Assembly (NCBI GenBank): GCA_905178155.1
Contig: CAJINV010000007.1
Span: 283,279-347,278 of the forward strand
Reading direction: 5' to 3'
Length of the DNA stretch: 64,000 bases
Source of the DNA: Amoebophrya sp. A120
Lineage: Eukaryota > Protista > Dinoflagellata
The notes beneath the pieces are model-generated. The model did no database searches. It saw only the letters and a list, made by a program, of their open reading frames with translations, and was not told the origin of the DNA. This document shows positions 1 through 64,000 of this stretch, piece by piece; position 1 is the stretch's first letter; every line of letters begins with the position of its first letter. Made by a program: the position numbers and the translations under genes.

Positions 1-225
1 ATGCACTGCCCTCATTTGTCATGCAAAACCCCAAGTCCAGGTGCTTCGCTTGGCTTCCCTGTGGCAATATTTGCATGACAGATTTTTCCGGAAAGAACCC
101 AAATAGTACTACACCAGGTGGTCACCACTGAATTTGTCACGCACAGGCTTCACGTGTGCTGGTGTTTGTATTGCAGCTTATGCAAAAATACAAATGAGGA
201 GGAGGGAGAGTTGTGCACTCTCATA
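1..225. mobile_element. Introner family E (left end off-window)
   Basis: Right TIR GGAGAGTTGTGCACTCTCATA. Confidence 0.7.
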
Positions 226-3200
226 ATGGTCGTCAGCAAGTCATCGAACTTCACCGGGCGAAAAATGTCCATCATTTGCAAAAACGTCCCCGCCCCAGAC
301 TTGTCATGCAAACTGGCATGTCTAAAATGTTTCTCATGCGCAGCCCCATGATCATGAGAGCCATTTTCTATCTGGGAGTTTGTTTGTTATGCTGAAATCC
401 GGATGAGGTGATGCGTCTGCACTACCTCGAACAGAACTACACTACGGATCCAAATCTGTCATGCGAAACAGCCAAAAGTTGGCGATTTGTGTAGCAATAA
501 AGACACCATCTTGATTCTGGGGCCGGGCCGCCGTTTTTGCTCAGGATAATCTCCAGTAAATTGTCGGTGAAACGCACCGGAAACGACTGGTAATACGGAT
601 GGTACAAGAACTCCTCGAGGTTTATTTTTTTGCCAAAAACTGGTGTCTTTTCCGACACTTGCAACAGCTTGCTACGGTGGATGAACGGCTCTCCTTGTGC
701 CTTTTTACTGTCTCCCCCCACAACTTCCTCGTCGCTCGGCCACCCATACTTCGCATCTTTCGGGAGGAAGATCGGGGTGTCTTGCGTAACCACTTTCCAT
801 ATGGACTGCAAAAATGTCTGGGTCTGGAAATCACGCAAGTCGCGCTCGCGGACCACACTCATAGTCTGTAATGCAAACAGAAGCATCACAGATTTTTTGA
901 GACCTTCCGTATGCTTATTCCGCATGAGAAATTCGCCCTCTGCCTAGCGAGAATTGCGTAACTGTTGGCGTTCATGCAACACAGATTTTTTTGTGATCCG
1001 AAATCGCATGAAGACAGGCTTTATGTTTATTCTTCCAGACCCAGACATATTTGCAATGCATATTCCAGACGGTTTCGCTCATGGGAAACTGTCGGTCGCC
1101 CATTTGGACAAAAAGCTCGTTCGCCGCTGCTGGTGCTTCTTGTCCTCCCTTGATTGATTCTTTATCTTTCCCCCACCGGACCGGGATACTTTGCAAACCG
1201 TTCCTCCGTATCAAGAGCAAATATGTCTGGGTCTGGAGGAAACTTGTGATGCAAATCTACGAATTGTGCGCGCACTACAATACGCAGCCCAGCATGACAA
1301 GTATTTGCGCTGCTGTGTGTTTCGTTTTTCGCATGACAAACTAAATTTTTGCATGAAGGGGCCCTTTTCCTGCTCATGCATCACAGATTTCAGACTCATG
1401 CCAGGCAGGCATGACAAACTTGCATTTTTCCCGACCCAGACAAATTTGCATTTGATACTCCGCCGGTAATCCGACACTGCGTGAAAAAAGTCGACCACTT
1501 TTACCGCAAATTTTCTGCGTTCCAGCACCCAAGATGTTTCACCTTCTAGTGGGTTTAGTTCCTCTCCTCTTGCCCTTCGTCGCCGTCTTTCGTAACGGTG
1601 TCCTCTTTCTAATTCTTGGGTATCAGTACTTGCTAGAACGGTTTCAATTTCGATGGTGACCCGCAAGACAGCCTCGTGCCAGTGTATCCTGAGTAAAAAC
1701 GTACCCACACCAGAGTCAAGATGGGGACTTTGCAACACAAACCTAGGAGTTTTGGGAGTCACGCATGACAAGTTTCAGTCCGTAAGGTAGTGCAAGTTAG
1801 CAAGGAAAGCCGCATCACAAATCGACCTGCTGATCCTGTTCACAGCATCACAAATTCCAAAACACGATTGGAAATGGCTCTCATGGGGATGCGCATCACA
1901 AATGTCTTTGTCATTGCAAATCTGCATTACAACTCTGGGGTGGGTACGTTTTTACTCAGGATACAGTCCCTCATGAGTTCAGTCCCGGCGTCTTCCAGTT
2001 GCATATCGTAGGAAAAAAGTGTTACAGTTACACACTCTGATGGAAGACAAGCAAGACAGACAACCTCTGTGATGCTGGAAATGCTTGCCAGCCTCATGAT
2101 TATTTCATTCGCGTTTATTTCCATTAAAGCCTGCGCATCACAGGTTTTCTTTGCCATGCAGAGCAACTTTGTGATGCTGAAAGTCCAACAAATGTGTAAT
2201 TGTAACACTTTTTTCCTGTGATACTGTACCACCTTCACATACCGCGCAAAATTGGAATCAGCGGTAATAGTAAGCTGCGAAGTGCCTGGAACAACATCAA
2301 GACCTCCTCGCATCGTCGTGCCAACCGCCGGATGTATTCGTTCACAGGAACACGGGGATCCACTCGAGGGTAGAGGTTCTTGCAGCGGGTGTCCTCGACG
2401 AACTTGCTGACTCAGCATGTTGATGTTGCTGTCCCCTCCAGTGTATCAAATGCAAAAGTGTCTGGGTCTGGAAGGTTGCAAGACTTGTCATGCAGATTTT
2501 CCATGACCCGCAACGCCTGTAATGCATGCCGTACCATCACAGATTTTTAGACGGCTTACTGATGCCTACTCCGCATGAGAAACGCCCTCTCCGCGTAGCA
2601 CAAAGTGGACTCCTCTTGCTGGTCATGCAATACAGATTTCTTTAGAATCCAGAGATAGCATCACAAGTTGCAACCCTCCAGACCCGGACATTTTTGCAAT
2701 CCATACAGTGGACATCAGTGCGCCGCCGGCGCGGCTGGTCCTTGTGCAAGGCGGACAAACCAGCTTGTCCCACCAATGAAAAGGTATCAAATGCAAATAT
2801 GTCTGGGTCTGGATGAGTGCAGCTTTGTCATGCACGTTTTGCATGAGCCATAATGTCTGTGATGTATGCCCTAGCGTGACAGATTCTTAGCAGGCTACGA
2901 CCATCCTGATGCCTATTCCGCATGACAAATGCCCTCCCCACGTAGCACAAACTGGGCTCCTCTTGCTGGTCATGGTGCAATACAGATTTTTTTAGAATCC
3001 CAAGGCAGCCTCACAAGTTCCAACTTTCCAGACCCAGACACTTTTGCATTTGATAAAAGGTGCCGCGCAGCAGTTGCTACTCTCTCTGAAAGTCTCTTCC
3101 ACCTTCTTCTTTGAAAATCTCTGGCGCGATGAACCGAGGCCGCGCGAGGACTGGGCAGCAGTAGGCGCCAAAGCAGTACCAGTCTCCTCCATCCCGGCCC

Positions 3201-6200
3201 AGCTACGTGCGATATAACAGTGCACAACTCCCCCTCCCCCTCATTTGTATAGCATGAATGGCAACACAAACATCAGCAATAGTGCCGGTTTTGCATGACA
3301 AAATTTGCAACGGATTATAGTGCCATTTGGGCTACCAGAACTTGTCATGCAAACAGTGCCAAGAGGCAAAGGGTGGACTAGGTATTTTGCATGACAAATC
3401 GGGGGAGGTGGAGTTGTGCACTGTGATATGCGACATACCGCTCCCACGTGAGGTCGAACTTGTGTCGTAGAATATCCGAGGCTATCAAATGCAAAAATGT
3501 CTGGGTCTGGAAGAATGCAACTTGTGATGCTGCATTTGGATATCTAAAAAAATTGTGTTGCATGAGCAGCAAAAGGATTCTACTTTTTGTTACGCGGAGA
3601 GGGCATTTGTCACGCGGAATAGGCATTAGGAAGCCCTCAAAAAACCTGTGATGCTAGGTCATGCATTAGAGGCATCATCGATCATACAAAATATGCATGA
3701 CAAGTCTCAGAATCTTCCAGACCCAGACATTTTTGCATTTGATAGAGGCAGCCGCGTTTCGGAATTCATGCCACTGCACTTCCCGGCAGTTGCTGTGCAA
3801 CGAAGGTTCTAGTAGTTTCTGCGGCATCTTGGGGACACAGGGGTGCGGCAGCGATCCGTAGCTGAAACTCAGAATCGTTTTCAAGTTGTAGGCGACCAGG
3901 GGGCTACCATATTGCTTTCGCAGGCCGTGTAAAAGAATGGAATATTGCAGCGGCGGGTACAAATCGAAATCTTTATGCAGAGGGTTAGTACGAGCATGAT
4001 CTTCTGGCAGTCGCTCGAGCAGAATCGGCGGGGGCGCCACGGACACAGCCTCGTATGGCGTCGAAATTGCCTCGAAAGCTATGGATTACAAATATGTCTG
4101 GGTCTGGAATTTTGTATAATGCTAAAAGTGAATGGTAGACGCATTGCAATATTACGCAGCTATGCATGACAAATTTTTTTGGCTGCCATGTCTTACGTAT
4201 TCCGCATGGCAAACTGCGTTTTTGCACGACAGGTAAGAGGGCCTTTTCGTGCCTATGCAACACAGATTCATCTCGAGAAGTCATGCCAGACAAGCATGAC
4301 AAACTTGCATTCTTCCAGACCCAGACATTTTTGCATTTGATAAAAACCTGCCTGAACCGATCTTCCGGGGGAGCTTTTGGTGTCTTCTCGCCAATAAAGT
4401 AATACTCTGGGCCATCTTGCCCACCCGGCACGTCTTGCTTTTTCTGCTCGTCCTTTTTCTGCTCGTCCAGTGCGTTTCGAGCGCACTCTTGCACGTCAGC
4501 TACAAATTTTCGATAGTCCTGACTGGCATGCTATTGAGAGGAAAAATCCCCCCTCCCCATATCGAAAAGGCATGTTTCCGAAAATTTGTGTTGCGTATTT
4601 GAGGTCACAAATCACGTCTGTCTTGCAAGAAGACAAGGGCAAAAGCTTCGCCCCCATTATGGAGGCGATTTGTCATGCTGTTGGGCCTAAAGCGGAGCCG
4701 TTTGCCATGCTGAACAACTAGACCGATACGCCCCTGCATAGCCTGTGGATCTGGCCGCGATGCCTTCCTGCAATACAAAGCCGATTTGTGTACACAAATC
4801 CCGCATCACAGATTTCCATTTCGATATGGGGAGGGGGGATTTTTCCCTTTGATACATGCAGCGTCATGACCGCGTGGCTCCACACGACAGAGTCTACTGG
4901 GCGGACCGGCCCTTCTTGTCTTCCACCGTATGCAAGAAAAAAACTGTGTGAGTGTAAATTTGTGTTGCAGAACATGCAACAGAGTTACACCTGTCATGCA
5001 AGACAGCCATGAAGCTCTCTTTTCATGTGTGTTTTGCCTTACAAGCCACGCATGACAGGTTTTCTCTGTCGTGTAGAGCAAATCTGTGATGCTGTTCCTC
5101 AAAGAAAATTACACTTACACACTTTTTTTTCTGGATACACCGATGAGTTCTTGTACTATTTGCGCAGCCGCTTCAGGCTGGAACTCTGTCACCACGTCCA
5201 GAAAGGTCATGCCGAAGGTCCGCGGCGCAGAAGACCTCGCGTACAAAAATTTCTCCACCTGCTCTTTTACTGCCTCGAGCTCGCTCGAGCTGACCTTTGG
5301 TTGCTTGGTGAGCTGGGGTAAGGACTCGTGCTTCAATTCGTCAACCACCAACGCCCGGGCCCGCAAAACCATTTCCAGTATGGGACGCAGCACGGGCTCA
5401 AACAAGTGCTCAAACATTGCCGCGCGGTGCAAAACCGTTTCGCCCAGAGGCGAAACCGAATAGGTGAGGACTATTTCCAGAAACGGCGCTAGATCTATCC
5501 TGAGGAAAAACGTACCCACACCAGAGTTGTAATGCAGATTTGAAAAGACAGGAAGACTTGTAATGCGCATCCCCATGAGGGCCATTTCCAATCGTGTTTT
5601 GGAATTTGTGATGCTGTGAACAGGATGAGCAGATGAATCTGTGATGCGGCTGCACTTGCTAACCTGCACTACACTGCATAGTGCAACTTGTCATGCGTGA
5701 CTCACAAAACTCCTAGGTTTGTGTTGCAAGATCCTCACCCTGACTCTGGTGTGGGTACGTTTTTACTCAGGATAAGATCTTGCAGTTGTTCCAACACTGT
5801 TCGCTGCCGGCGGGGAGAGGAGCCGCCAGCTGCATCTTGTTTTTTTTCTTCTTGCGGGACACCAATGGCAAACAAAAACTGGGTCAGCCACACCGCCCGC
5901 GCGTCCAGCGAAATTCGCTCAAATTCGCTTGGGTTCTGCAGCTGCTCGTAGCTCATCTTCTTTCGCACCGATGCAGCTGCAATCGCCCGCTCCATTTCCG
6001 TATCAACTGCAATTGTGTGTCTGGGTGTAGAAGAATGCCAGACTTGTCGTGCAGGTTTTCCATGACCCATGAGGTCTGGCATGTAAGACATAGCATGACA
6101 GATTCTGTGAGAGTTCTATCTATCATGCCTATCCTGCATGAAAAACCGCCTCTCGATTGGCTCAAAGAAAAGTGGACAGCTTTTGGTAATCATGCAACAC

Positions 6201-9200
6201 AGTAGATTCTTTACATGATTCAGATTTAGCATGACAAGTTGCTTTGCTCCAGGCCCAGATATTTTTGCATTTGATATTCCGCCTCCGCGTGGCCGAGCGC
6301 CCGCATGAAAACGGTCTCACCCTCCACGTTATCGTGAAGAAAAATCCCTCCTCCACATACTCACAATGGAAATTTGTGCTGCTGATTTGTGACCACGAAT
6401 CAGCTCTGTCTTGCATATGAGGCAAATGGGAGCCGTGTGGCGCATTCCACAGCCAAGCTGTCGTGCGCTTCTGCCTAATGCAAAGCGGTTTGTCATGCCT
6501 GCGGAATTGCCTGAGTGCTAGCCTTTTGCATATTTTTACCTGATCAGGCTTAGAAAATGGAATGCCTACAAGCTCGCTTGTTGCAATACAGCTCTGTGTA
6601 CAGAAATCCAGCAACAGAAATTTCCGTTTCAATATAATGGGGAGGTGGCTTTTTTCAACTTGATACACGTCCCGGGCCTGGAACAGTTCGTAAAGAATCA
6701 TATCGCTCTATGAATGTGCACAACCCCACCCCCTCGTCCCTCTCGTTTGTCATGCAAAATCCCAAATCCAGTCGCTGCCTTGTGGCACTGTTTGCATCAC
6801 AAATTTATTTATCGGGAAGCCCGAATAGAAATAGTTGTATTTTTACACATAGGCACATAAATTTGTTATGCATATGCACAGGCTCCATGCGTGCTGGCGT
6901 GGTCATGTGTATGGCTCTTCATGCCAACCTACAAATGAGGGGGAGGGGACGAAGTTGTGCACTCTCGTACCGTCACCATTCTGTCGTTTCCGATGTTTTT
7001 CGTGGAGAAGAAGGCCAAGCTCAAATGGAATCGCAACAGATCTTGATTGCCGCTCGCCTGCGCTGCTACGTGCAGCGGCGACCGTCTCAGCAGGTCTTTT
7101 GGCGCAAAAAACAGCTGCCATACGGCCGGGAAGGACCCAGCCTGTATCCTGTGTAAAAACGTACCCCAGAGTTGTCATGCAAATGCGCAATGACAGGAAG
7201 ATTTGTAATGCGCACTTCCATGAGAGGCATTTCCAGTCGTGTTTTGGAATTTGTAATGCTGTAAACAGGACGAGAAAATGGCTTTGTCATGCGGCTTTCC
7301 TTGCCAGCCAGTACTACACTGCAGATGGAAACTTGTCATGCAGAACCTCTAAAACTTGGGGATTTGTGTTGCAGACTTCCCATCTTGACTATGGTGTGGG
7401 GACGTTTTTACATAGGATAGCCTCCGGATTTTCGCTTTCCCTTTCTCGCTTCTCAAGTGCGGTTTTCAGCAGTTCCAATTCTGCGATGTGGCCTATCAAA
7501 AGGAAAAATGCCCCCTCCCCGTATCAAAACGGAAATTTGTGTTGCTGATTTGCGACCACAAATCATGTTGTCATGCTGGAGGGCAAAGGATGCGGACTGT
7601 AGTGCTGGCTGGCGTTGGAAAGCCTTGCATCTTCAGCATGACAGGAGGCAACTGGAAGAGGGAAACAGCATAACAAATTGCCTACAATTCAGGCGACAGT
7701 TGCGTCTTTTGCCTTTCTAGCAATACAAGTCGATTTGTGTACGCAAGTCCAGCATCACAAATGTCCTCTTCGATATGGGGAGGGGGGGTTTTTCCTCGCA
7801 ATATGGCCGAAGGGCGCGTCCTTGTGAAGTTTTTGCGTGCCCTCCGCACGCAGAAACCGAATTTGGTCCGCAAGCAGCGCCGAGCCTTCCCAGTCTTTTT
7901 CCTTGTCGTCTAACACTATCTTCAGCTTCGAAAAAAAGACCCCGGCCATCTGCAGGGTACTAGTCCGCTCCCCGGCCCCGGAATAGAGAAGATGAAAATT
8001 GCTCCGGCCTGCATTGTATCAAATGTAAAAATGTCTGGGTCTGGAAAAGTGGAACCTGTAAGTATTGCGTGGTTTGGATCTCTGTAAAATCTGTTTTGCA
8101 TGACCAGGAAAAGGAGCCTTCTTTTGTCATGCAAAAGCGCAGTTTCTCATGCGCACTACGCATGAGGAAGTGTCCGAAAAATTTGTCATGCTTGGTCGCA
8201 CTCAGGAGCATGTTCAATCATCGCCACCCAGCATCACAAGTTTCCAGCAGACCCAGACATTTTTGCAGGTGATACATTGTCTGCCCCCCGAAGCCAAAGA
8301 CGCGGAAACGTGCTTGCAATCGACCACTTGGGCTCCTGTGTTTCATCTTCCCGCCACACGTAATCTTTTTTCACTGCGTCCCATTCGAACATCCTATCAA
8401 ATGCAAAAGTGTCTGGGTCTGGAAAACTGCCAGACTTGTCATGCAGGTTTTCCATGACCCATGAGGTCTGGTCTGTAGGACAGAGCATGACAAATTCTGT
8501 GCGATCTCTCTCATGCCTATCCTGCATGAGAAACTCCCTCCCGACTTGGTCAAAACTGGACGACTTTTGGTAATCCGACAACACAGATTTTTGCATGTTT
8601 CAGATTTAGCATGACAAGTGTCACTCTTCCAGACCCAGACATAGTTGCAGTCCATACATCCCCTCGCGTGGCAATTGAATCTTTCCGAGCAATTTTTCCA
8701 TGAAGATGACATCCCGCTCCTTGCCCTATCACACAGAAAAAAGCTGGCAGGGCATATCTGTCATGACAAGTACTCGGAACAGCTTACATATCACAAGTAG
8801 ACGCGCATCTTGTGCAACTTGTGCGCCGTTTGTGATTTCAGGTCTTTTCGAAAACCGCTTTCTTCTTCCTCGCCTTGAGCGCTAGCCGAAGCCCAGTTGT
8901 TCGTCCTTTCTGCGCCCATATATGTGCGGCGAATGCGAAGCCTGTTCCTGTAAGAAGCTCAAAGCCAAGTCCATTCGTTTTACTTTCTAAAATTTGCGCC
9001 TTCTTTCTCTTATGAATATGTGTATTTATTTTTGCATTACAAATACCAGCCATGCCCCGGCTGACGCCGGGGCGCAAGGCTGTTGGGGCGGGGCAGGACT
9101 ATTTGCGGATCGGGCCACAGCGACAGGGCTTTACGGACAGCGTGACAGATCGAAGGAAGTTTCGGCGCCGGTTTGCGCCATGTCAACCCGCAGGGCCTCC

Positions 9201-12200
9201 TGCGCGCTTCCCGCGCCTTCAGGCGCTATGCGCAGAGAGCAGCTGCAGCGAAGCTTGAGGGCGAAGAGAAGCCGCCTCGGCATCGGTGCCGAAGCAGAAC
9301 TCGGACCGCGCTGCCCTTTGTTGATCACACACACGCCCGCCCCCGCCCAACTGGCTTCCCGGCGGAAGCTGTTGGCGCGAGCGGTTAGCGCGAGAGGGTC
9401 CGCGAGAGGGTGCGCGAGAGGGTGCGCGGGGGGGTAGCGCGAGAGGTGTGGGCCTACACCGTGAAACAGTCCCACCAAAATCGGCCTCGTGCTGGGCGGA
9501 TTCGGTTCTTTTTTACCCCCTCGCAGGCCCTCTTTTTGGCCTCTCCCAAGGGGTGTGGCTAATAATCCGGCTATACTCGCCGGTAGAGGTCTACAGAGGT
9601 GGCCGAGAGGTGGCCCAGAGAGTGCGCGAGGGGTTCGCCCTTATTCGCGCAACCTCTCGGCACCTCTGTCCCCCTCTCGCTTACCCTCTCCCGGCCCTAT
9701 CGGCCACCTCCGTCCCCCATAGGCGCGGCTTTAGGGCGACCGGTTCGGCTGGCTATACTCGCGCCACCTCTCGGCCACCCTCCCGAATGACCTCCCGCGC
9801 CACCTTTCCACCTCTGTGGACCTCTTTTTGACCTCTTTTCACGTCTTTTTGACCTCTCGGCCACCTCTCTTCTATCCTCTGTAGACCTCTTTTTTCGCAT
9901 GAATATAATAGATAGTGATGCCCTCCCAGCTTTTTTCTCTGGGATATGCCCATCCGGATGCGCATGCCACTGAAGGTTTCCGCTGTCTCCACCGAAGTGC
10001 TCGACCAGAGCTGCATCACCACCCACGAAACAAACAGGTCCTGTGCGGCTATCGTACCGGAGATCCGGTAATTTAATCCCAGCCTAGCTTTAAAAGCATC
10101 GATGTGCTTTTCCGAGACTTTGGCATCGCAGTAGGTGTAGAGGTGCCAGAGGAGGAAAGGCGAATCCACCTCCTGAGGGGAAGATGAAGAAGGGGTTGTG
10201 GACGACCACGCAGCAGCTCCTTGTCCTGAGGCACTACCACCTCTTCTACCTTGAGCAGCCAAATCCGCTTTGGTACTTCTGCTCATCCGGTCGTTCGTTG
10301 CCAGGTCAAGAAGACCAGCCGGGCCCCGTCCCGGCCCGGCGGTGAGAAGCCCCGAGCGACGGCGCACCTCGTCCAAGTGTGGCTGGGGAGGATGGCCTGC
10401 CGCTTTAGTAGAGTCGTGGTAAAATTTTTCGGTGTATGGATTGCAAATATAATGTCTGGGTCTGGAAGAATTCATGTTTGTCGTGCTTGTCTGGCATGAC
10501 TCTAAAATCTGTCATGCACGTTGCCCAAGAGCTCCGTTTTTCTGTGATGCAGAAGCGCAGTTTGTCATGCAGAATAGGCAACACCTAGGAGCTCAGAAAC
10601 TTGTGATGCTGTGCCAGCATTTGTAGCCTCCTCATGAGACGCCACCCAGCATCACAAGTTTCCAGACCCAGACATTTTTACTTTTGATACGGTGAGATCG
10701 CCGAGTCTGCGCTCCGTCCCGTAATACATCTCCGATACCAGATACCCAAGGGCCAGCGCGTTTCTGAACCCGTTTGCATTCCCAATAATCGCGTCTGCCC
10801 TGGAGCTATCAAAGAACGCACATATGTCTGGGTCCGGAAGTATGCAGATTTTTCTCATGCTATGTTTCCATGACCCAGATCCAGCAGGTCTGGCATGCCG
10901 GGCATAGCATATACAGGTTTTGAGAAGTAGGTGGAGCGCCGATGCCTATATACACATGACAAATTGCCTATTTTGCGGTTGACAAGGATTGGCAATCTTT
11001 GCTGTCTGTGCTTTTTTGTGTCTTGTGAAATGCGCATTACGAGTTCCACCTTTCCAGACCCAGACTATGTTGCACTTGATAGGAGCTCACTGCGATCAAA
11101 ATCGTGTGCAAAAACTGCGGGTACCGCGTCCCTTGTGCCGACTCCAGCGAATCCAGGGCGTAGAAGACTCGCCGCGCCGGACACGCCGAGACGTCGCTTT
11201 TTGCGTCCTCGCATGACCCGAATGATCCATCGCCCCTTGTTGGCAACGATCTGCGATGATGAACCAGAAATTGCTGCTGCAGTTGCAGATCTGGTAATTC
11301 CTTTTCTTTCATCAGAGGTCCAGTCTGAACCCCCGCGCCAACCTGGTTCGCCGTCTGATGCGTGAACCTGGATACTGAGCGGCTACTCAGAAATTTCGCG
11401 TAGTCGATCTCCATCTGTAGGAGCCGGAACATGAGGCTTGCGATATCAAAATGAAAAATCCCCCCACCCCATACTCAAACTAGAAACTTGTGACGCAGAT
11501 TTGTGATCACAAATCAGCTCTGTCATGCTAGAAGGAAAGACATGCGGAGCGTAGTGCTGGCTGGAGTGGGAAAGCCTTGCGCCTTCAGCATGACAGAGAG
11601 CAACTGGAAGTGGGAAACAGCATGACAAATTGCCTGCACCCGAGGCCACAACTGCGGCTCTTGGCCTTCCAGCATTACAAGTCGATTTGTGTACACAAAT
11701 CCAGCATCAAAAATTTCGTTTTGATATGGGGTGTGGGCTTTTTTCATTTTCATATGCGAGATGCTTCCAATTCTGGAGGATTCTTTTCGTGGTCACCAAC
11801 TGGCGTTGGCTAGCAGGATTTCCAACATTTTGCTGCAAAAACGATCCGCCCCCAAACAGCAAGGTCTCCGCATCGCGCACTTTGATCCATTTCTATAAAA
11901 GTGCACAACTCCCCCTCCCCCTCAGCTGTCATGCAAAATACCCAATCCTCTCTTTGCCTCTTGGCATTGTTTGCATGACAAGTTCTGGCAGCCCAAATAG
12001 CACTACACTCCAGTGCAAATTTGTCATGCAAAACCAGCATTCTTGCTGATGCTTGTATTGCCATTCATGCTATACTCAAATGAGGGGGAGGGGGAGAGGG
12101 AGTTGTCCACTGTCATAATTTCAGGATGGGATCCAGAAACGATTTGTGCTGCGTATCAACTGCAAACGTATCGCACTCGTATAAATGCATTGCAAATTTC

Positions 12201-50863: not shown

Positions 50864-53800
50864 CTACAGAACCACCACTGGTCGCAGCTGTTTTTGGTTC
50901 TGCGCCGCTTCTGGTTCCTCCGGGCGCTTCTGCGCCCAAAACGGACTGCAGTTCTTGGAAGCGTGGAATTCAATATTTCTGGCGGTGGTCAAGAACCTGT
51001 TCGGCTCTTGTTGCTGTTCCACCCTCGCAGCAGTGGTATCAATATCAAATGTAAAAATGTCTGGATCTGGAAAATTGGAACTTGTGATGCTGCATTTGGA
51101 TGGCAAAAAAATCTGTATTGCATGAGCACAAAGGGAATGCAATTTTTGCTACGCGGAGATGGCATTTGTAATGCGGAATAGGCATCAAGAAGGCCTCAAA
51201 AAGTCTGTGATGCTAGGGCACGCATCACAGACATCAAGACTTACGCAAAACCTGCATGATAAGTCTAGAAAATTTCCAGACCCAGACATTTTTGCATTTG
51301 ATAATCGGTTCGCAACGTGTTGAGAAACCCGCTCTGGGACGGTTCCGTCTTCGGCTTCAGCATGATCGTAAAGGCGTTGACTATATCAACTGCAAAAGTG
51401 TCGGGGTCTGGACGAGCGCCAGACTTGTCACGCAGGTTTTCCATGACCCATGAGGTCTGGTATGTAGGACATAGCATGACAGATTCTGTGAGAGTTCTAT
51501 CATGCCTATACTGCATGAGAAACTGCCTCTCGATTAGGTCAAAAGTGAACAGCTTTTGGTAATCATGCAACACAGATTTTTACATGATATAGATCTAGCA
51601 TGACAAGTTGCTTTGTTCCATTTTTGCATTTGATAGACAACCTCTGCGTCATCCGCTACCTGGATGGCCGTGTCGACAAACACCTTCTCCTCTGGATCGT
51701 GAATAAAAAGCCCGTAAACCCCCGCGCCGAACAGCTTGTGATCCTTTCCCGTCGCCCGGTAGCCCGTGTAGGGCGGCGGAAGCTCGTGGGGTAAGGGCTT
51801 TGCTACGTGTTTGAAGATAGAAGACTTAATATTTTGTTGCCCCTGGTGTCGATCCACGGAGCTCTTACCCACTAGTACTTCTCCTTGGGAAGCAGCGGCT
51901 GGCACAACCTCGACGTCCCCGTCTCCTGCCGGAGAAGTACGAGGACCAAGTAGTGGTGGCGCAGCACAAGAAAATTGATCTCGTCCATCGGCGGAAGTAG
52001 CGGAAAACCCCCAATCCGGCTGGATGTCTATCAAAGGAAAAACAGCCCCCACCTCATACTCAAAAGACAATAATCATAATGGATTTGTGTACACGAATGA
52101 GCTTTGTGTAGTTGCAGCAAGACCTCTTTGTCGGTATATTCTAACCCTATTTGGGTACGCATCCGGCTAGCAGCTACTTAAGCATGAGAAACAAGTCTGA
52201 CATAGGCGAAAACGCATGACAGACTCGCTGCACAATGCGCCACATGGGTGCCGTTTGGTGCCTTGTACGCAAGACAGAGCTGATTTGTGGTCACAACTCA
52301 GCATCACAAATTTTCTTTCGGATACGGGGAGGGGACATTTTTCCTTATGATACTGTCGTAGGGGAGTTCGCACTGGTAGAAAACCGTTTTCCCGAAATCC
52401 CCGGTCCACTCCTATCCTGTGTAAATAAAACGTTCCCACTCCAGATTCAAGATCAGGATCGCGCAACACAAATCGAGAAGTTTTGGGAATCACGCAAGAA
52501 AGGTTTTTCTCTGCATTGTAAGTGCAGTTTCGCAAGCACAGCCGTGGATCACAGAGCCATCTACCTATCCTGTCTGCAGCACGACAAGTTCCAAAGCACG
52601 ACTGGAATAATCACTATTCTTGCCTCTCATCTTCATCATGGGGATGCGCACTACAAATCTCTCTTTGACTGCAAATCTGCATCACAACTCTAGGGAGGTG
52701 GGGACGTTTTTACGTATCGATAACTCGACCTGGTTCTTCAGCAAATGTTCGACCGCAAGGCCGTACGCCGCCACGTGATTCCCTTTCACCCGCAACCCGG
52801 TGTAGGCCGGATTCTGTCCGTTCCCGATCTGCCCAGTCTTGGCGTGGTCCGCGCGCCAGCCCCAGTAATTCTCGAGTACTAGGTATGCTCTGCAAAAGTA
52901 TCGTACTCGTAGTAATTGCTGTCATGCATGATGAATCTCCTTTCCAAGGGAAAACAGCATTACAAGTTTCATTTGTCATGCTAAGCAAATTTGTAATGCA
53001 ATTTCTACTAGTACGATATCGCTTTTGCCATGCATACAACGAAACTGCGGTCGATTTCCAGCATGGTGTCCACGGCACGAAAATCTTCGCTCGGGTCCTG
53101 GTTGTCGCCACCCTATCAAATGCAAATATGTCGGGGAGGTCTGGAGACTTGTATGTAATGCTTGGTTGGGAATAGTGCATGCTCTGTAGCGCACAGCCTT
53201 GCATGAGAAATAAGGCCAGCGCCGCTTAGTGTTGCGTTTTCCGCATGACAAAGACAACCTGCGTCTTTGCATGACAGGCAAGAGGCCCTTTTCCTGCTCA
53301 TGCAACACAGATTTAAGAGTCATGCTCATGCCAGACAAGCATGACAAAAGTGCATTCTTCCAGACTCAGACATATTTGCAATGCCTACACCAACGCGGAT
53401 TACAATGTCCTGCAGGACCGCCGTGTTGATGCGGCTGGGCGTTACTTCATTCGCGGCCATCGCCTCCTTTATGTGCGCTGCCGTACTAGTAGAACTAGCA
53501 GCAGCAGCTACGCCAGTTTTATCATAATTCTTTGCTCTGTGCTGGCCCCCTTCCCCGGCGTCCTCGAACTCCTCTCCACGTGGCAGCAGCTTCGGTCTTT
53601 TGTGCTCAGGACCAACTTTTTTAGCAGTTGTTGGACTCGGTTTAGACATACAAGAATCTTCTTTATCTTCCCTAGCAGCACACACTGCTGAAGGAACACT
53701 ACATCCTGAGCCTTCGGGGGGAGGAATCAAATCAGAACCAGAAGATCCCCCAGAACCAGATCCTTCAACCCCCCGAGAGGATAAAAACGCCCTGAGTCTA

Positions 53801-56800
53801 GTACTTCTTGACGGACATGATATCGAACGACCAAGGACCGACCACCTAGGGGACAAACTGAGACCCCGCAGTCTCTTCGAAAGGCTATTGACGGCCTCGT
53901 CGTCGACGGGTGCGCCGCTGGCACCACAATTTTCAGGACCACCAATATTCGCCGTTGTATCACCATGAGTCTCATGATCTACTTGTTCTTCTATCTGCAT
54001 TCTACTAGTTGCACAGCCACTACAGTGATGATTTGTGCCTTGCTCTACTACTCCTTCCATAGCGCCAGTAGCATCGGGACGAGCACTACTAGTAGTACTA
54101 TTGACAAGGCCATGTTGGCCATGCTGCTGCATTTCATTTTGATGTCCTGCTCGGCTGTCTTCACTGCTAAATAAACAATCTCCTGCACGGCCATACGATT
54201 CTTGTTTTCGATCTTCCGCCGTTTCGACATATATTTCCGGCTCCATGACGCGCAACAATCGGGTGTAGCTGAGATTCTCTCCCTGCTTTTCTTGCGGCTC
54301 ACCGTTCATTTCCGTTTCCACCAGCCCCGACCCCTTTCCAGGCTGCAGGGTGAGCCCGGCAACGATAGGGGAAGCGGCCTTGATTTCCATCGCCGGGAAA
54401 GTGCCAAGCGTCTCCAGCATGGCAAACCCGAGACCAAGCAAAACCGGGCGGCGGGTAAGAGAGGACAAAGGCTGTTCTTCACCTCCTGCTCCGGCGGTTT
54501 CGAAAACCTATTGGCAATACAAGAAGCAAGTATAGATCGATAAGATGGAGCATTGCAGACCATGTCTTCGTGTCGTGAGGCATGCTGATAAAAACAAAAA
54601 TGTTGAGAAAACTTGTACATGTTTGAGTAAAAGTACTATCACAAACGAAACACCACCTCGACCGTTTTGAAGATTTCTAGCTGCGCATAATACTATACAT
54701 AGGTACCTGAATCGGCTCGGTGAGTTGGTAGATGCCCGGCGTGAAGACGATGTCTTTCTTCTCCACATTTAACTTGTGATTGATCACCTTCGCAACCTGT
54801 TCCATCTCTGGCCGGGCAACAAAAATGTTTGAAAAGGGCCGGGTCTCTTCCGCACGGAGGATGGTTTCAGCTGCAGCAGGAGCAGTACCTTGCTGGTGAT
54901 GTTCTTCAGCATTTATTTCCTCTCGGTAGGTCAAAGCGGGGACTCTCAAGTAGTACCCACTGGATAGTACACGACGACGGCGGTGCAGATGGGAGTCCGA
55001 GCAGTCCTCGTCGCTGCCGGAGTTCTGCTTCTTCGCCGATGAACATTCTCCTTCGCGTGGTTCATCGTGGTCGTTCCCACTTTCGTAAAAAATGTACGGC
55101 TTCGACTGGAAAACGAACCCGTGGTTTTTGCTATTGGGTGAAGATTTTTTTGCAGTAGTAGCGGTGGACGCAACTGTCCTCGTCGACAAAAGTACCTGCG
55201 TGACGGCTGCGTTGGGGTTCACTTTGTCCAACGGGCCTCCGCGGTGGGATGATGCACTTCTTTTCATCTTCTCGGTAGAAGAGGAATCCCGATCCTCTCC
55301 AAACCCGAAGTCACACTGCAGCCCGACGAAGCTCCAAGCACCGCCACTGGCCCCTTTTTCCGCTTTGGTGTTCACAAACAGGAACTGCTGTTGGCTGCCC
55401 AGCGCTAGCTATGCATTGCAAATTGTATGTCTTGATCTCTGGAAGGTTTGTCACGATTGTCTTGCATGCAGTTGACATCTGAAGGGTTTGTAATACGTGA
55501 TGTCGTGTCCAGGAAGAAAAGACCCTTATTTTGCCAGGCGTGCAGTAGCATGCAGAGAACGCATGACAACATAAATAGCGCAAATATTTCTCTATGCTTT
55601 GCGGCGCAACATAAAAGTAGCTACACGGCATTCACTATTCACATCCCAGCATTTTTAGTACAAGTTTCCAGACATTCAGAGAAGATATTTGCGAATGATA
55701 CCAGCTATCCTGTGCAAAAGTATCGTACTCGTATCAATGCTAATGCAAGTCTTGCATTACAAACCTTGTTCTCAAGGAAGATTAGCATTACAAATTTTCT
55801 TTCTCATGCTAAGGAAATTATTTGTAATGCATTTATACGAGTACGATACTTTTGCAGTGCATACCAGCTCCCCCCTCACCAAAACGTCTGCCATGAAGCC
55901 ACCGCTGGTGTTTCCGTAGTATTGCAAGGAAAAATCCCCCCTCCCCATACTGAAAAGGTATATTTTTGGAAATTTGCGATGCTGATTTGTGGCCACGAAT
56001 CGGGTCTATCTTGCAAGAAAGCAAAGCCAGAGCCTTCGCCGCTTTACGCCGGCGATTTGTAATGCTGCTGCGCTGACAGGGCAGACGTCTGCCATGCTGA
56101 GCGCCCGCCTCTAGCCAGCCCCTTCCAGGCTTTGCATCTGCCTGCAGTCCTCTACTGCAAGACAAAGCTGATTTGTGTACGCAAATCCCGCAACACAGAT
56201 TGTCACTTTGATACGGAGAGGTGGGATTTTTCCTTTTGATACGTAGTCAGGGGTATTCATCTTGAGATGCAGGGATTGCAGGGAGCGGGTCGGTGGTGGA
56301 TCCTGGTCTTTTCCATCTTCACTGTGATCAAAGAACAAGCGCTGCTTGTTCTTTTCTTTTTCTACTGCTTGTCGTTGTTCTTGTCCTTCTTCAGCTTCGT
56401 CGTCTTCGTCGGAAGTACTGTCATCACAGTACCCCGGAACATCTTTCACGGGGCCATACATGAAACCCTTGAAGGGGTCCGCCTTCCCGCACATGTCCTG
56501 AAACATCATCAAGCGAAAGTCTCCATCAACAATTAACCTCCGAAACGGGCTTGCCTGCGAGACCGCGGCGTTAACCGCCCCGAGAATCCGCATGTTTTCC
56601 ACGGACCGCCAGAAGTTGCAGGTGCCGCCGGGCCCGAAGGTGAACTCGCTGGCGTTCGGGATTTGCAGATGCTGAATTTTTATCCTATGCAAAAGCATCG
56701 TACTCGTATTGCAACCATGCATCACAGATCTTTCTCTTAAGGTAAATCCGCATTTTCTCATGCTGAGAAATTTTGTAATGCATTTATACGAGTACGATTA

Positions 56801-59586
56801 TACTTTTGCAATGCATAATTTTCACTTGATCAGCCGTCTCCCCAAGCCCGTAGTACGCTTGATAGTACCCCGGAGTGATGGAAATGTCTCTATAATTTCC
56901 CGGTTTGAACAACACTTGCACCCGCGACTGGTCCGATCGGTCAAACTCGCGACCCGGGTACGTGGGGATCTCGGTGTCCCGGAAGTTGTTCACAGATATC
57001 CTGTTTGGTTCGTCGCGCTTCAAATTGTCGAAAAGCTGCTCGTATGAACTGCAAAAGTATCGTACTCGTATAAATGCATTACAAATTTCCTCAGCATGTA
57101 ATGCTGATTTGCTTTCACAAAAAAAATTTGTGATGCAAGACTTGCATTTATACGAGTACGATACTTTTGCACAGGATAGCTCGCTCAATCTATTCGCCTT
57201 GTGCGGGATCCTCGCGAACTGACGGCCCTTATAAAAAGGAAAGATGCCCCCCCATATCGAAAACGAAATTTGTGATGCTGGACTTCCGCACAGTCTTGCA
57301 GTAGAGGACTGCAGGCCCATATCATGCCAATGTCGAGCGGCTTTGGCCTAGGCCCTTAGCATGAGGAACGCGAACGTCTATGCTGTAGGACCGACAACAT
57401 TACCAACCGCCTGCATAATGGGGCGGAGCCCATGTCGTTGCTTTCTAACAAGACAAACACGATTTGTGGCCACATATCAGCATCACAAATTCGCTGAGGC
57501 GTTCCTTTTCCATACGGGGAGGTGGGATTTTTCCTGACGATAGTCCTGGCTGGGACGCTCACGGTTGCTCAGGATAGAGGATTTCTGCAGGCATTTGGGG
57601 TAGAACTTCTCCCCTCCAGTGGATACACTGCTGCGTGAACACCGACGACCGGATGAATCTTTATGTTTACCATCATCTAATATCTCGTCGCTAATATTTC
57701 TATCCGCGGGGGCTTGCTCTTGACGGTCTTTTCCACCAGAACAAGGTCTTGTTTCTAATACTGTAGAAGAAGCTCTACTTCTGCATTTCTGTTCCATCTC
57801 CTTCAGCAGCAATAGCCCCTTTTCCGGGCACGACCCCCGTTCCAGTGCGTAACCCAGAGAGTCCTGTCCGCCCCAAATGTTTCGCTCGATGTTCGTTTCG
57901 AAATTCCAGGGAAACCAAGGCTGGTCCTTTGGGTAATTCGGCCGGGGCTTTCCTTCAGAGAAGATGTTATCCAAGACTGTCTGCAGATTTTTCGTTTCCG
58001 CATCATTCTTCGGCGGCTCGATAACAACAACGTGGTGGCCCCAGTCCGGGTGCATAGGCTCCACCTCGTCGCAGTTGTTGTATAATTGTGCGTAAGAAAA
58101 ACGTGTGTGTCCCCTTCCACTCCGAGACTTCTTGCTATGCATACTTATTTGCATGCCCAGATTGTTGTAAGTATCTCATGCGCAGTTGGAGCCTGATGTT
58201 AAGCAGCAGTTTCTTATGCTGTCTGGAACTTTTTGGTGATCCTCTAATCAGCAAAAAGAGCCACTTAGATTTGTGATGCCTCTGCACTAGCCAACCATCG
58301 GACATCAATCCTAGAGACACAAACTTGTCAGGAGGCCAGATATTACTTACCCAATAAACCTTGTTGGTTTGTGTTGCAAAATTCCTATGCTCACTCTGGG
58401 CTGGGGACCACGTCGCTACTTTTGCTCAGGATATTATGTCTTGTCCTTGTCTATTTTCCTCTTCTGCCACAAAGAACTTGGACAACATCCGGACGTCTTG
58501 ATGCGCATTACCAACAAGGAGATCATGATCTACTTCATGTTCGTCATCATCTGGCACACCTGCAGAAGTAGATCCCGTCTTCAAAACAGCCGCCGAAACT
58601 ACTGGTGCGCCGGCACTTGTTTTTCCGGACCACAACGGGAAATAAGAACCACAAAAAAGTTCCGCCGTAAAGAATATGCATTGCAAAAATGTCTGGGTCT
58701 GGAAAAATGTAGGACTTGTTATGCTTGTCTGGCATGCCTCTTGGATCTACTGTGATGCGTAAGCAGGAACGGGGCCTCTTGCCTGTCATGCAAAAACGCA
58801 GTTTGCCATGCAGAAAACGAAACACATGGCAGTGCAAAAACTTGTCATGCTTGGCTGCATATTTTAGTGCGCCCACCATTCAGAGATTTGCATCACAAAT
58901 TTCCAGACCCAGACATTTTTGCATTTGATAAAGAACAGCTGCAGTGCTGTTCCCGCCGCAAAGGAAATCATCGTCCTGAAGACCGCAGACCGAGCTATAT
59001 CAAGGTGAAAAAAAATTCCCCCTCCCCATATTAAAATCGAAATCTGTGATGCGGGACTTGTGTACACAGCTCGAGTCTGTCTTGCAGTAGAGGACTGCGC
59101 GCAGATCCGAGGCCTAGGCTGGGGCCTTTTGCTGTAGGCGCCTCGCATGACAGACATCTTCCTTATAGGCCTTACCGCATTACAAATCGCCTGCATAGCG
59201 TGCCGGACTGTCTGCACTTGCCTTCATGCAAGACAGACAGCATTCGTGGTCACAAATTTGCATGGCAAATCTTCAAGAAGGATGCACTTTCGATATGGGG
59301 AACGAAATTTTTCCGCACAATAAGCTAGTCCGGACGAAGGTAGTTCGCGATGGAAAGAGCATGTGTCTTCCCCAGCAGCACGACGAGCGGAAAACTTCCA
59401 ACGTGGAGAATCTTCACGAGCGGAGGTGCGACGTCGACTTTCGGTGCTACGCAAATGGAGGCTGGTGAATATTTTCCTCTTATTTTTTCCAACCAGGAGG
59501 ACACTGCGAGAAGGCGAATTTGTTTCCGAAAACTGTTGTGTCTGTCCTGGGACAAAATTTTTTTGCTGGCTAAAAATAAACGACAT
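50864..59586 (-). CDS. Multi-exon gene (15 introner introns + 1 canonical intron): bacterial-type GH55 exo-beta-1,3-glucanase (laminarinase)
   Basis: Spliced motifs appear in the order known from Streptomyces-type GH55: VLFKPGNY, GYYQAYYGLGE, NFWRSVEN, AVSQASPFRR, TSGGFMAD, GSQQQF, FTPGIY, VLLGLGFA, LQDIVIRVGG, WGWRADH, AYGLAVEH, VFYQCELPYD, HKLFGAGVY. The start codon (59586) and last exon are less certain. Confidence 0.85.
51043..51303. mobile_element. Introner family A
   Basis: DR ATCAA/ATCGG. Confidence 0.85.
51384..51635. mobile_element. Introner family A with a deletion inside the right TIR
   Basis: DR GACTA/GACAA; GACCCAGAC missing from right TIR. Confidence 0.85.
52029..52352. mobile_element. 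Introner family C, degenerate
   Basis: DR ATGTC/CTGTC. Confidence 0.85.
52413..52722. mobile_element. Introner family B, degenerate
   Basis: DR ACTCC/ACTCG. Confidence 0.8.
52884..53036. mobile_element. Introner family F, degenerate
   Basis: DR CTAGG/CAACG; frame restored. Confidence 0.8.
53114..53387. mobile_element. Introner family A
   Basis: DR CACCC/CACCA; right end CCTA. Confidence 0.8.
54508..54706 (-). other. Canonical GT-AG spliceosomal intron (199 bp) in the GH55 gene
   Basis: Minus strand CAG|GTACCT...TTGTATTGCCAATAG|GTT. Joins FTPGIYQLTEPIQ to VFETAG...VLLGLGFA in frame. No TIR. Confidence 0.8.
55410..55700. mobile_element. Introner family A, degenerate (stacked against the next element)
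   Basis: DR CTAGC/CCAGC. Confidence 0.8.
55706..55863. mobile_element. Introner family F (stacked)
   Basis: DR CCAGC, shared with the neighbouring element. Confidence 0.9.
55920..56241. mobile_element. Introner family C
   Basis: DR CGTAG. Confidence 0.9.
56681..56817. mobile_element. Introner family F
   Basis: DR ATTTT. Confidence 0.9.
57043..57178. mobile_element. Introner family F
   Basis: DR GCTCG. Confidence 0.9.
57230..57542. mobile_element. Introner family C
   Basis: DR GCCCT/GTCCT. Confidence 0.85.
58081..58433. mobile_element. Introner family B, highly degenerate
   Basis: TATA...CTCAGGATA; DR TGTTG/TTATG; frame restored. Confidence 0.65.
58675..58930. mobile_element. Introner family A
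   Basis: DR AAGAA. Confidence 0.9.
58998..59322. mobile_element. Introner family C
   Basis: DR AGCTA. Confidence 0.9.
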
Positions 59587-62408: not shown

Positions 62409-62487
62409 ACTTCCTTCTTTCAAAACTACTTCTTCCTTCAAAACTACTTCTTCCTTCAAAACTACTTCTTCCTTCAAAACTACTTCT
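62409..62487. repeat. 18-bp tandem repeat (CTTCCTTCAAAACTACTT) x4
   Basis: Direct reading. Confidence 0.9.
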
Positions 62488-62822: not shown

Positions 62823-63859
62823 CTACCCAACTGATGATCTACCCAACTGAGGTGATGATGATGATCTACCCAACTGAGGTGGAAGCTGTGGTCTTCTTGG
62901 CTCTGATCGACGGACGTATTCCTGCGCCACAGACAGCTTCTGGTCCACCAAACGAAGCTTCTGCATCCACATCGGATGAAATTCCGATTCGGTAAGCAGC
63001 TCCGGGACCAAACCCTGAATCCGCCCTTTATTGCTGAGCAACTCGTCCTTTAGCTGAAGAAGCTGCCGCTGCGCAAAAAGAAGCACCAGCCGCAGCCGCC
63101 CAGCCGCAGCCGCAGAAGCGCCAGCCGCAAACTGTTCGGCCGTCGGCCGCATGACGAGAAGCAGCCCCGCATGGTTTACACCGACTCCACGAGCTCCAGG
63201 ACGGAGCTTCGACTCCACCAGGAGAAGCGTCTGATTATGAGAGAGAAGCTCGGGAATAACGTCGGGCCAGGAAGACGGATCCAAAAGACCACGGCGACGA
63301 ACGTCCCACTGCTTCCGAAAAAGCTCCGACCATAGCTCAAGGAGGTCTGCCCGAGTGTCGGTCAGCCCCTCGCTCTCCGAAAAAAATATCCTGCGTAAAA
63401 GCGTCCCCGTTCCAGAGTCAATAATACATGGGCTTTTTGCTACACCAACCAGCCTTTTTTGGGTGTCGCGCATGACAAGCTTGGACTCGCAGTGTCGTAA
63501 GTACTAGTTGTGCTGGTGAGCTATTGTATCTGCATCAGAAATCGATCCACTACTCATCCTGATTCTAGCACGACAAAAACTGCCAGGCAGCATTAGAGAA
63601 TGCTGCTCCTGGGGCGGCGCGTGAGAACAAGTATTGCAGATTTTCAGGAAGACACGTCTGGCGTGAAGAAGCTTTTACACAGGATAACGTACCTTTCAAA
63701 GTCCGAAAACGAAAATAGTGGAAATTCAAGACCTCCCGATTCATTCTTCGCCAATTCGTCTAGATATTCAACGACCTCTCGACTAGATGAGCAGCGAGAG
63801 CGAGCCTCTGATTCGACCTGTGTAAGGGTAAGATTTTGCTCCCGCCCGAGTAGCCGTTT
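62823..63859 (-). CDS. 3' end (last two exons in window) of a hypothetical protein gene continuing beyond the window
   Basis: Exon 63687-63859 (KRLLGREQ...DFERY) joins in frame to exon 62823-63386 (SESEGLTD...GRSSVG*) across a degenerate family-B element. Confidence 0.6.
63387..63686. mobile_element. Introner family B, degenerate
   Basis: TATCCTG...CAGGATA; DR decayed (AAAAA/ACGTA) but frame restored. Confidence 0.75.
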
Positions 63860-64000
63860 TATTACAATGAAAAATGTCCCCACCCCCGAACTTGAAAGCA
63901 TTTGTATTGCAAACCTTTCCAAATGAAACATTCGCCCTCTTGCATGTATCAGCATCACAGATTTCCGATCGTGAATAGCAAAAATTTGTATTGCAAAAGA
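63860..64000. mobile_element. Introner family H (right end off-window)
   Basis: Reverse-complement match to the right half of 43058-43361. Confidence 0.85.

Follow-up and report, generated by a model that had tools for sequence, protein, structure and literature searches.

Genes of Amoebophrya sp. A120 carry MITE-like inserts flanked by 5-bp direct repeats; with good confidence, these are taken to be non-autonomous DNA transposons that are retained in the DNA and cut from pre-mRNA through a predicted end-to-end stem, not through GT-AG signals. The window analysed here is a stretch of 64,000 nt from contig CAJINV010000007.1 (positions 283,279-347,278 of the forward strand), and its inverted-repeat elements of the form TAT...ATA number 88 complete and 2 partial, the partial ones lying at its edges (1-225 and 63860-64000). 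Judged from the sequence, these are the already published introner elements of this strain (Farhat et al. 2021, PMC7789003), because the reconstructed open reading frames (ORFs) match proteins named Amoebophrya sp. A120; the ends also carry the reported signature of TAT, 7 nt and AAA (PMC7789003), and the identification made in a preliminary description of this DNA thus stands.

The elements cover 25,000 bp, or 39% of the window. An unbiased scan for inverted ends agreeing at 15 or more of 20 positions together with a perfect 5-bp direct repeat returned 50 matches, against 0, 0 and 0 in three shuffled sequences. The repeat is perfect over 5 bp in 63 of the 88 complete elements, agrees at 4/5 positions in 17 and at 3/5 in 6, and is worse in 2; perfect direct repeats of length 3, 4 or 6-9 were not found at any of the 88, and in related loci 208 of 317 repeats are perfect over 5 bp. 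On the forward strand TAT starts 87/88 elements and ATA ends 83/88, and position counts give a terminal inverted repeat of TAT, 7 variable nt and then at least three A. The elements are short and non-coding, with inverted ends and a target duplication of fixed length, as in MITEs, and a Pfam search with two frames of the longest one gave no match. Their ends are repeated in the genome, as DNA depth there reaches 2.8e5 against about 45-60 for unique DNA. The 90 elements, nine families, bounding letters and share of perfect repeats given in the preliminary description were all recovered, with identical family counts.

Families were sorted by clustering, with hand placement of seven outliers. Family A has 33 members of about 250-290 bp (orientation 20 vs 13), located at 800-1062, 1209-1457, 2444-2705, 2785-3055, 3483-3744, 4080-4342, 6001-6276, 8017-8274, 8395-8656, 10435-10689, 10807-11081, 13051-13319, 14225-14486, 22436-22703, 22778-23039, 23322-23595, 25646-25907, 26097-26354, 34909-35161, 38980-39233, 39393-39666, 40336-40600, 41740-42008, 42154-42419, 43422-43686, 46041-46306, 46966-47230, 47282-47533, 51043-51303 (start 51043, not 51037), 51384-51635, 53114-53387, 55410-55700 and 58675-58930. 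The 17 members of family B, about 280 bp long (8 vs 9), lie at 270-548, 1685-1963, 5496-5774, 7145-7419, 12394-12695, 13725-14015, 20753-21031, 24949-25234, 35691-35970, 36546-36826, 39826-40103, 42708-42986, 44179-44457, 52413-52722, 58136-58433 (left end decayed), 60211-60506 and 63387-63686. Family C comprises 14 elements of about 320 bp (7 vs 7), at 4532-4854, 6330-6665, 7494-7803, 11444-11754, 13358-13683, 14726-15053, 20279-20603, 40672-41000, 43820-44139, 46575-46920, 52029-52352, 55920-56241, 57230-57542 and 58998-59322. Nine elements of about 150 bp (4 vs 5) form family F, at 12154-12305, 21107-22315 (which carries a 1.06-kb insert), 25405-25553, 37318-37466, 40143-40290, 52884-53036, 55706-55863, 56681-56817 and 57043-57178. 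Family D has six, of about 210 bp (2004-2223, 4929-5137, 12760-13015, 36263-36478, 41061-41270, 47618-47831), and family E five complete and one partial, of about 220 bp (1-225, the partial one; 3213-3428, 6709-6969, 11894-12117, 23949-24164, 44507-44730). The remainder are two elements in family G (8727-9946, with inserts, and 24673-24843), two in family H (43058-43361 and the partial 63860-64000) and one in family I (41364-41682).

Excision of each element with one repeat copy yields minus-strand ORFs of 1845 aa (33 junctions), 2087 aa (12), 2020 aa (25), 720 aa (6) and 677 aa (6), and 83 of the 88 complete elements lie inside four host ORFs. Over 54 junctions the reconstructions match three database proteins, two of which bear the name Amoebophrya sp. 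A120 (P0001 and P0002, 100% identical to the window exons); these proteins are gene models from the same genome and thus not independent data. Host gene 1 (231..15754, minus strand, 33 elements, 1845-aa ORF) extends beyond the window and is identical to a third protein, P0003, along 1830 aa. A Pfam scan of five of its exons found no family and a search with one exon among proteins of up to 2,000 aa found no match; a representative-protein search matched a 2,172-aa protein. Host gene 2 (20011..30290, minus strand, 12 elements) gives a 2085-aa model with one residue difference from P0002, and a Pfam scan of two exons found no family. Host gene 3 (35358..48094, minus strand, 25 elements, 2020-aa ORF) has a UDP-glycosyltransferase domain, matching PF00201 (E 3.5e-8) in the single exon 39239-39391. 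Host gene 4 (50867..58127, minus strand, 12 elements) is beta-glucanase-like: a stretch spanning four junctions matches PDB 4PEW and relatives (E 4e-19), which we take to be GH55 proteins. Its frame may continue to 59631, the upstream end being uncertain, and its model equals P0001 across 1046 aa once an ordinary 199-nt GT-AG intron (54508..54706, minus strand) is also removed. The tandem elements 55410-55700 and 55706-55863 share a single 5-bp repeat (55701..55705), which amounts to a zero-length exon, and both are missing from P0001. The earlier claim that removal restores stop-free proteins with glycosyltransferase and GH55 motifs holds for the ORFs, up to 2087 aa, and for the glycosyltransferase and beta-glucanase-like matches.

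Precise removal without GT-AG is required, as had been proposed, since retention of an element disrupts the frame in 80 of 82 cases and not one stop occurs in the 21,921 coding nt of the exons, where drift would predict 17-66. In related loci, conserved motifs of RNA polymerase Rpb1 are interrupted by elements. Removal occurs for both element orientations relative to transcription. When the junction is slid within the repeat, GT-AG is obtained in only 1/88 elements, as rare as the preliminary description had held, G[TCA]-AG in 9/88 (8 in a wrong-strand control) and AT-AC in 3/88; the GT/GC donor and AG acceptor of U2-type spliceosomal introns are thus not a property of this set. Cryptic sites away from the ends, the outcome named beforehand as fatal to the proposal, were checked for GT-AG: in-frame pairs within 12 nt occur at 39/88 elements, which is chance (null 39.3 +/- 4.8). 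Target sites favour neither a +1 G nor a 3'-terminal AG, the repeat letters have no purine bias, and no strand-biased branch-site signal was seen in the elements. The motif GCATnACAR was considered as a branch site and rejected: perfect sense copies near the 3' end number 108 against 114 antisense copies near the 5' end (281 vs 324 for all copies), and a sense copy is missing in 54/218. An ordinary spliceosome acting at GT/GC-AG sites within or near the repeats could draw on the GT-AG pair at element 23322, the GC-AG pair at 20753, where the annotated residue fits, and the shared layout reported for 15% of the canonical introns in A120 (PMC7789003). As a general route it is refuted by the splice-site counts and by the annotated proteins, which agree with no removal other than that of the element and 5 nt, and we hold it to be improbable in the extreme.

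The position of the cut can be read from 12 imperfect repeats in which the choice of copy changes a residue. In 11 of these the repeat itself contains the cut, which precedes TAT by 1-2 nt and follows ATA by 3-4 nt; keeping 0, 1, 2, 3, 4 or 5 letters of the downstream copy fits 9, 11, 11, 9, 6 and 3 of the 12, respectively. Register 0 is excluded by only two cases, and only a single contig distinguishes 1 from 2: a piece from sequencing run X4 that ends at 52876 allows only 0-1 downstream letters, which favours a cut 1 nt before and 4 nt after. Element 20753 contradicts this register, needing at least three letters, and GC-AG is possible there. The hairpin is thus probably removed together with one base on its 5' side and four on its 3' side, so that the intron would be N-UAU...AUA-NNNN and the repeat left in the mRNA would take its letters 1-4 from the upstream copy and its letter 5 from the downstream copy. 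With the cut placed in this way, U at +2 and A at +3 do not vary (218/218), like a GUA donor minus its G. Farhat et al. left the border inside the repeat undefined and detected no family-specific motif (PMC7789003), and no description of the register was found in the literature searched.

RNA-seq support for these introns has been reported (PMC7789003), and several features of sequencing runs bear on it indirectly. Runs X3-X6, taken as RNA by guess, contain 0.38-0.39 of the words tested, against 0.37 expected if only exons were present, and words from host gene 3 exons occur in probable RNA runs. Three contig pieces of run X4 end at element borders, and elsewhere these pieces continue for 26-43 letters. 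Among the 15 joints listed of 1,011, a set dominated by the DNA run, no junction-spanning read was seen. In run X1, a single DNA run that is possibly the source of the assembly, three contigs cross whole elements with 0 differences at a depth of 44-45, like unique DNA, and five further DNA contigs pass element borders with 0 differences. Coverage in runs X8 and X13 is almost restricted to element letters and gives no evidence on this locus. The elements are retained in the DNA and are probably excised from pre-mRNA.

Programmed DNA excision leaving one repeat copy, as in removal of ciliate internal eliminated sequences (IESs), would suit the TA-bounded ends, the strand symmetry of every signal tested and the DNA-like subterminal motif, and contigs drop rare variants, as rare or stage-specific excision would produce. 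It is nevertheless disfavoured, and very unlikely, because whole elements stand at full depth in DNA contigs and probable RNA contigs stop at the borders. Lacking a separate germline nucleus, a cell would moreover hand excisions on to its offspring. The joints in cDNA might instead be reverse-transcriptase jumps over hairpins between direct repeats, with translation by ribosome hopping between matching codons. A hairpin with a short direct repeat is reported to be a known recipe for such jumps (PMC8240250, PMC2923612); a crossover within the repeat is what they would give, and one in-frame codon is present in every repeat of 5 nt. Yet the in-frame codon differs between the copies in 12/22 imperfect repeats, on which count hopping is rejected, 33 hops within one gene are implausible, and element words of this locus appear largely absent from RNA-like runs; this account is even less probable than DNA excision. 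Of the earlier proposal of a dedicated pathway acting on RNA or DNA, the RNA branch is favoured, and the pathway may be a dedicated one or a relaxed spliceosome.

Predicted folding is strong (median z -5.7; z < -2 in 80/86), with no advantage of the sense strand (p 0.18). The arms co-vary within copies: in 106 disjoint pairs, own arms beat swapped arms 46 vs 15, to be read beside a slid-arm control that leans likewise (37 vs 24), and at positions 4-8 the effect is absent (19 vs 17). Terminal letters deviate in 6/528 cases against 36/440 mismatches in the repeats. The inner arms (positions 9-34) may thus act through pairing and not sequence, and the terminal TAT/ATA may remain under selection after insertion. 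Selection for wobble pairs in the arms was rejected, with no excess of G.U over A.C (89 vs 96; 150 vs 133 in a second count). All nine families have GCATnACAR in common as subterminal repeats; its divergence is 5.0% vs 12.4%, about half of that gap being ascertainment, and conservation after insertion is not claimed. Hardly any exon is shorter than 30 nt and hardly any copy is nested; a noisy end scan of related loci gave five SSEE patterns, and the four distinct loci inspected held no clean nested element. Removal in both orientations, arm co-variation, the all-family motif and the near-absence of short exons and nested copies were not found reported in the literature searched.

Mobilisation would likely depend on one enzyme recognising TAT-N7-AAAA and the subterminal GCATnACAR of all families. 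No transposase family was found among 96 frames, no autonomous partner in viral contigs, and no orthologue of the window exons among related loci; an Rfam search covering the window and 18 of the 146 related loci gave no match. The integrase-like family 38 of A120 (PMC12130899) is a possible lead to the enzyme.

For removal, a hypothetical U1-less spliceosome variant, to which we give about an even chance, would let the stem replace end-finding by U1 and U2AF and would drop the requirement for G at +1 and -1. U1 went undetected in A25 and A120 (PMC7789003) and was found in a GT-AG strain from Karlodinium (PMC12005148). A separate endonuclease-ligase that uses the stem as its ruler, on the model put forward for Euglena nonconventional introns, has a somewhat lesser chance. 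Donor, acceptor and branch bias are all absent, removal is orientation-independent, and both ends are predicted to lie within a long stem; Farhat et al. concluded a distinct mechanism (PMC7789003), and the Euglena authors prefer distinct factors and give a code, 5'-N3CDG...CH'GN5-6|R, with a similarly longer 3' spacer (PMC12501133). Against such an enzyme stand the constancy of U at +2 and A at +3 in the register proposed here and the loss of U1 in parallel with these introns across strains, and none was found for Amoebophrya in the literature searched. More tentatively, and with the balance somewhat against it, A120 may use N-UAU...AUA-NNNN as a second code for splicing; a U1-less spliceosome or a new nuclease-ligase would read it without +1 G or AG and would locate both ends through a stem that is self-complementary but otherwise free in sequence. 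Any DNA with such ends would make a perfect intron whichever way it points, the 1,954 'families' in the literature would be one transposon system with a single GCATnACAR-binding enzyme, and foreign inserts would also target the site as a safe harbour.

Tens of thousands of Amoebophrya introns lack GT-AG, and the question of their removal is here made specific for existing RNA-seq, through the proposed fixed register, the invariant UA/AU ends, the putative pairing-only inner arm and the shared motif. A fixed register would correct gene models at imperfect repeats. A stem-guided, orientation-free intron would show how a host can render exonic transposon insertions harmless, in parallel to Euglena.

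Among known systems, the MITE introners of Aureococcus, Micromonas and Polarella are likewise non-autonomous and bounded by inverted repeats; they duplicate their target and turn into introns upon insertion (PMC7789003, PMC11282704, PMC12130899), those of Aureococcus having canonical splicing motifs (PMC7789003). The A120 elements lack these motifs and function in either orientation. Paramecium IESs have TA ends, are inserted in coding exons and leave one repeat copy after removal. The A120 elements resemble them in all three respects, but their repeat consists of 5 variable bases outside the TA and they persist in bulk DNA, where IESs are absent from the expressed genome (the evidence being one DNA run, possibly the assembly source); we know of no germline/soma split in Amoebophrya. 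Euglena nonconventional introns are also MITE-like, with pairing ends, non-GT-AG borders and junction repeats (PMC12501133, PMC11282704). Their 3' spacer exceeds the 5' spacer by 2-3 nt, as here; they depart as circles, and they have a CAG/CTG core, spacers of N3 and N5-6 and an exon that begins with a purine (PMC12501133). The window elements do not follow that N3-CDG...CH'G-N5-6|R code, having TAT/ATA, probable N1 and N4 spacers and no target preference, and they belong to an unrelated lineage. From the published A120 introners, which have a 3-5 nt direct repeat across the exon/intron border (PMC7789003), there is no difference in kind: the elements are intragenic, fall into families and share the TAT terminal repeat, 5-bp direct repeats, lengths of about 240-270 nt, non-GT-AG borders and the junctions of public gene models. 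To the account of Farhat et al. are added here the register, the cross-family motif, the way the two arms co-vary and a lower limit of 30 nt on exon length.

Removal of the elements is required. Their retention breaks the reading frame in 80 of 82 elements, and the 21,921 coding nt contain 0 stops where 17-66 would be expected at 2-8% drift, the direct repeats differing at 36 of 440 positions. When the window was scanned without bias for inverted ends next to a perfect 5-bp direct repeat, 50 matches emerged, against 0, 0 and 0 in three shuffles. The catalogue, compiled from end libraries plus pairing by hand, holds 88 complete elements and two truncated by the window ends, and elements occupy 39% of the window. 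The nine-family counts of the preliminary description were reproduced exactly, with seven outliers assigned manually. The 5-bp repeat is perfect in 63 of the 88 elements, and none has a perfect repeat of 3, 4 or 6-9 nt. The same description had claimed that excising element plus repeat gives stop-free proteins and that sliding the junction generally does not produce GT-AG, and both points hold: removal of each element with 5 nt yields minus-strand ORFs of 1845, 2087, 2020, 720 and 677 aa, and GT-AG is reached in 1 of 88 elements. In-frame GT-AG pairs close to these 88 elements are at chance level (39 versus 39.3 expected). A metagenome scan recovered at least 146 loci with the same families, with wide flanks for 80 and identity of up to 99%; here, RNA polymerase Rpb1 is split by elements, and continuous junction peptides return after their removal. 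Six elements lie in an Rpb1 locus (L058, L060), one of them measuring 972 bp, and further ordinary introns also seem to be needed there.

Single-exon queries retrieved two proteins named Amoebophrya sp. A120 (P0001 and P0002, matching genes 4 and 2) and the unnamed P0003 (gene 1), each at 100% identity. P0001 is reproduced exactly by a model of 1046 aa with 9 elements and one 199-nt GT-AG intron. For P0002 the model (2085 aa, 12 elements) is off by a single residue, and for P0003 agreement is complete across 1830 aa with 33 elements; thus database gene models treat 54 of the 88 elements as introns. In the accessible text of Farhat et al. (PMC7789003), the A120 genome contains 1,954 families of these elements with 29,850 members, their starts read TAT, 7 nt and an A-run, RNA-seq supports these introns, and neither U1 nor a transposase was found. 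Protein matches and published description together bear out the proposed match to Amoebophrya introners, so the system is already known. It is real and striking but was published in 2021. The gene 4 frame (56594-59631) extends upstream of the annotated start and passes through more elements, perhaps as far as 59631, which suggests a public model that may lack its 5′ end; the junction at 58136 is ambiguous. The long reconstructed ORFs all lie on the minus strand (231-59631, 62826-63859), like the unidirectional gene blocks reported for Amoebophrya.

Farhat et al. do not fix the border position inside the repeat. In 12 imperfect repeats the copy kept alters the residue (five others are silent within matched proteins and eight lack a matching protein), and when 0, 1, 2, 3, 4 or 5 letters are taken from the downstream copy, the residue agrees in 9, 11, 11, 9, 6 or 3 of the 12, respectively, a test that rests on annotators' alignments in gene models (BLAT, est2genome, Gmove). 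A contig piece from run X4 that stops at 52876 permits 0-1 downstream letters only. We infer that the best single register is the intron form N-UAU...AUA-NNNN, register 0 being excluded by two cases alone and 1 separated from 2 by one contig alone. Element 20753 contradicts it, since at least 3 letters are needed there; GC-AG is possible at that site.

Excision had been proposed on either RNA or DNA. Runs X3-X6, taken as RNA by guess, contain 0.38-0.39 of the words of 38500-48400, exons alone amounting to 0.37. Within 50300-61150, three contigs of the DNA-like run X1 cross whole elements with 0 differences at a depth of 44-45, like unique sequence; X1 is possibly the assembly's own source, and rare forms are lost in contigs. 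Three X4 pieces from this region end at element borders and then run on elsewhere, one indicating a corrected element start at 51043 that P0001 later supported. Among the 15 of 1,011 joint rows listed, all from X1, there was no true joint. Runs X8 and X13 are uninformative for this comparison. Raw RNA reads of X13 (window 51042-51303, 58685-58930) join a family A end to another locus's flank, with 45 reads at one end, and one family A copy elsewhere seems to be retained in, or abundant as, RNA. An X4 contig of depth 7 differs from DNA at exon positions 53909 and 53925 (G>A, C>G), possibly reflecting a paralog, an allele or editing.

Internal exons below 30 nt number 1 of 79 in the window versus 9.6-10.8 expected, and among the related loci recovered 4 of 158 fall below 30 nt and 31 of 158 at 30-59 nt. 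Nested elements in the window number 0 versus about 48 expected with all bases equal targets. At 55410-55863, tandem elements of different families share one 5-bp repeat, with a zero-length exon between them; neither is present in the annotated protein. A 3.9-kb exon (26361-30290) is element-free while the 3′ part of the same gene has 12 elements, and the gaps 15755-20010 and 48095-50866 are also element-free. Intergenic tandem arrays occur at 49923-50204, 61210-61621 and 62404-62487 (units of 12, 11/22 and 18 nt), and a GC-rich low-complexity stretch at 32300-34300.

The motif GCAT[GCT]ACA[AG] is present in 87 of 88 window elements (9.6 per kb versus 0.13 outside), placed inverted about 32-44 nt from each end, plus internal copies, and in 311 of 317 elements from the related loci recovered. 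Because it is strand-symmetric, GCATnACAR is read as a site where the mobiliser likely binds DNA rather than as a branch site. An additional insert within a normal element accounts for the over-long ones (window 21107-22315; metagenome loci L036:571-1051, L037:3862-4492, L058:4792-5763 and L070:1581-1904). Target duplications of 8-19 nt fall on the motif in 5 of 5 clear inserts (chance about 1e-4), these five being chosen by eye among 20 listed cases. A poly(A) run terminates two of the five, and such inserts resemble site-directed retro-insertions; the host introns appear still removable. A GC-rich insert of ~870 bp lies in a family G element (window about 9044-9917) and in a family B element of a related locus (L067:5690-6559). 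The two copies are 81% identical and the motif adjoins both; this is a second mobile element riding on introners, with no Pfam match in the two frames searched.

Positions 1-3 of the elements are nearly invariant (6 of 528 deviate), positions 4-8 are variable and poorly paired, most families have an A-run at 11-14, and 15-30 pair despite being family-specific. For 86 elements the predicted sense-RNA fold has a median z of -5.7 (12 shuffles each), with no advantage over antisense. Arms co-vary within copies (50 versus 11 in the window, pairs not independent; 46 versus 15 in 106 disjoint pairs; 19 versus 17 at positions 4-8; 37 versus 24 in a slid-arm control); possible causes are selection for pairing, conversion driven by the hairpin, or descent from unseen masters. 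Elements lie in either orientation in the window (A 20/13, B 8/9, C 7/7, F 4/5) and, for family A, among the related loci recovered (30/29). Strand asymmetry is weak: position 3 deviates 8 versus 1 times and position 1 0 versus 3 times at 5′ versus 3′ ends (Fisher p 0.018, seven positions examined).

The elements likely insert as DNA, making the 5-bp duplication, with no insertion-site sequence preference apart from GC-rich coding DNA. Once transcribed, the arms would pair in either orientation and keep both cut sites close to each other. In the register given above, U at +2 and A at +3 never vary (218 of 218); the 5′ end is like a GUA donor minus its G, and AG is absent at the 3′ side. U1 is undetected in A25 and A120 (PMC7789003), and the available text of PMC12005148 reports it as found in the Karlodinium-derived GT-AG strain. 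A putative U1-less spliceosome variant has about an even chance of being the agent of removal. To a separate nuclease-ligase, proposed by analogy with Euglena as described in parts of PMC12501133 and PMC11282704, we give somewhat less than even weight. A fixed register, shared motif, exon floor and motif-targeted inserts were not found in the open-access text searched, including portions of PMC12130899 and PMC11453091. The splice register and the shared motif are testable leads that add value to a system already known from Amoebophrya.
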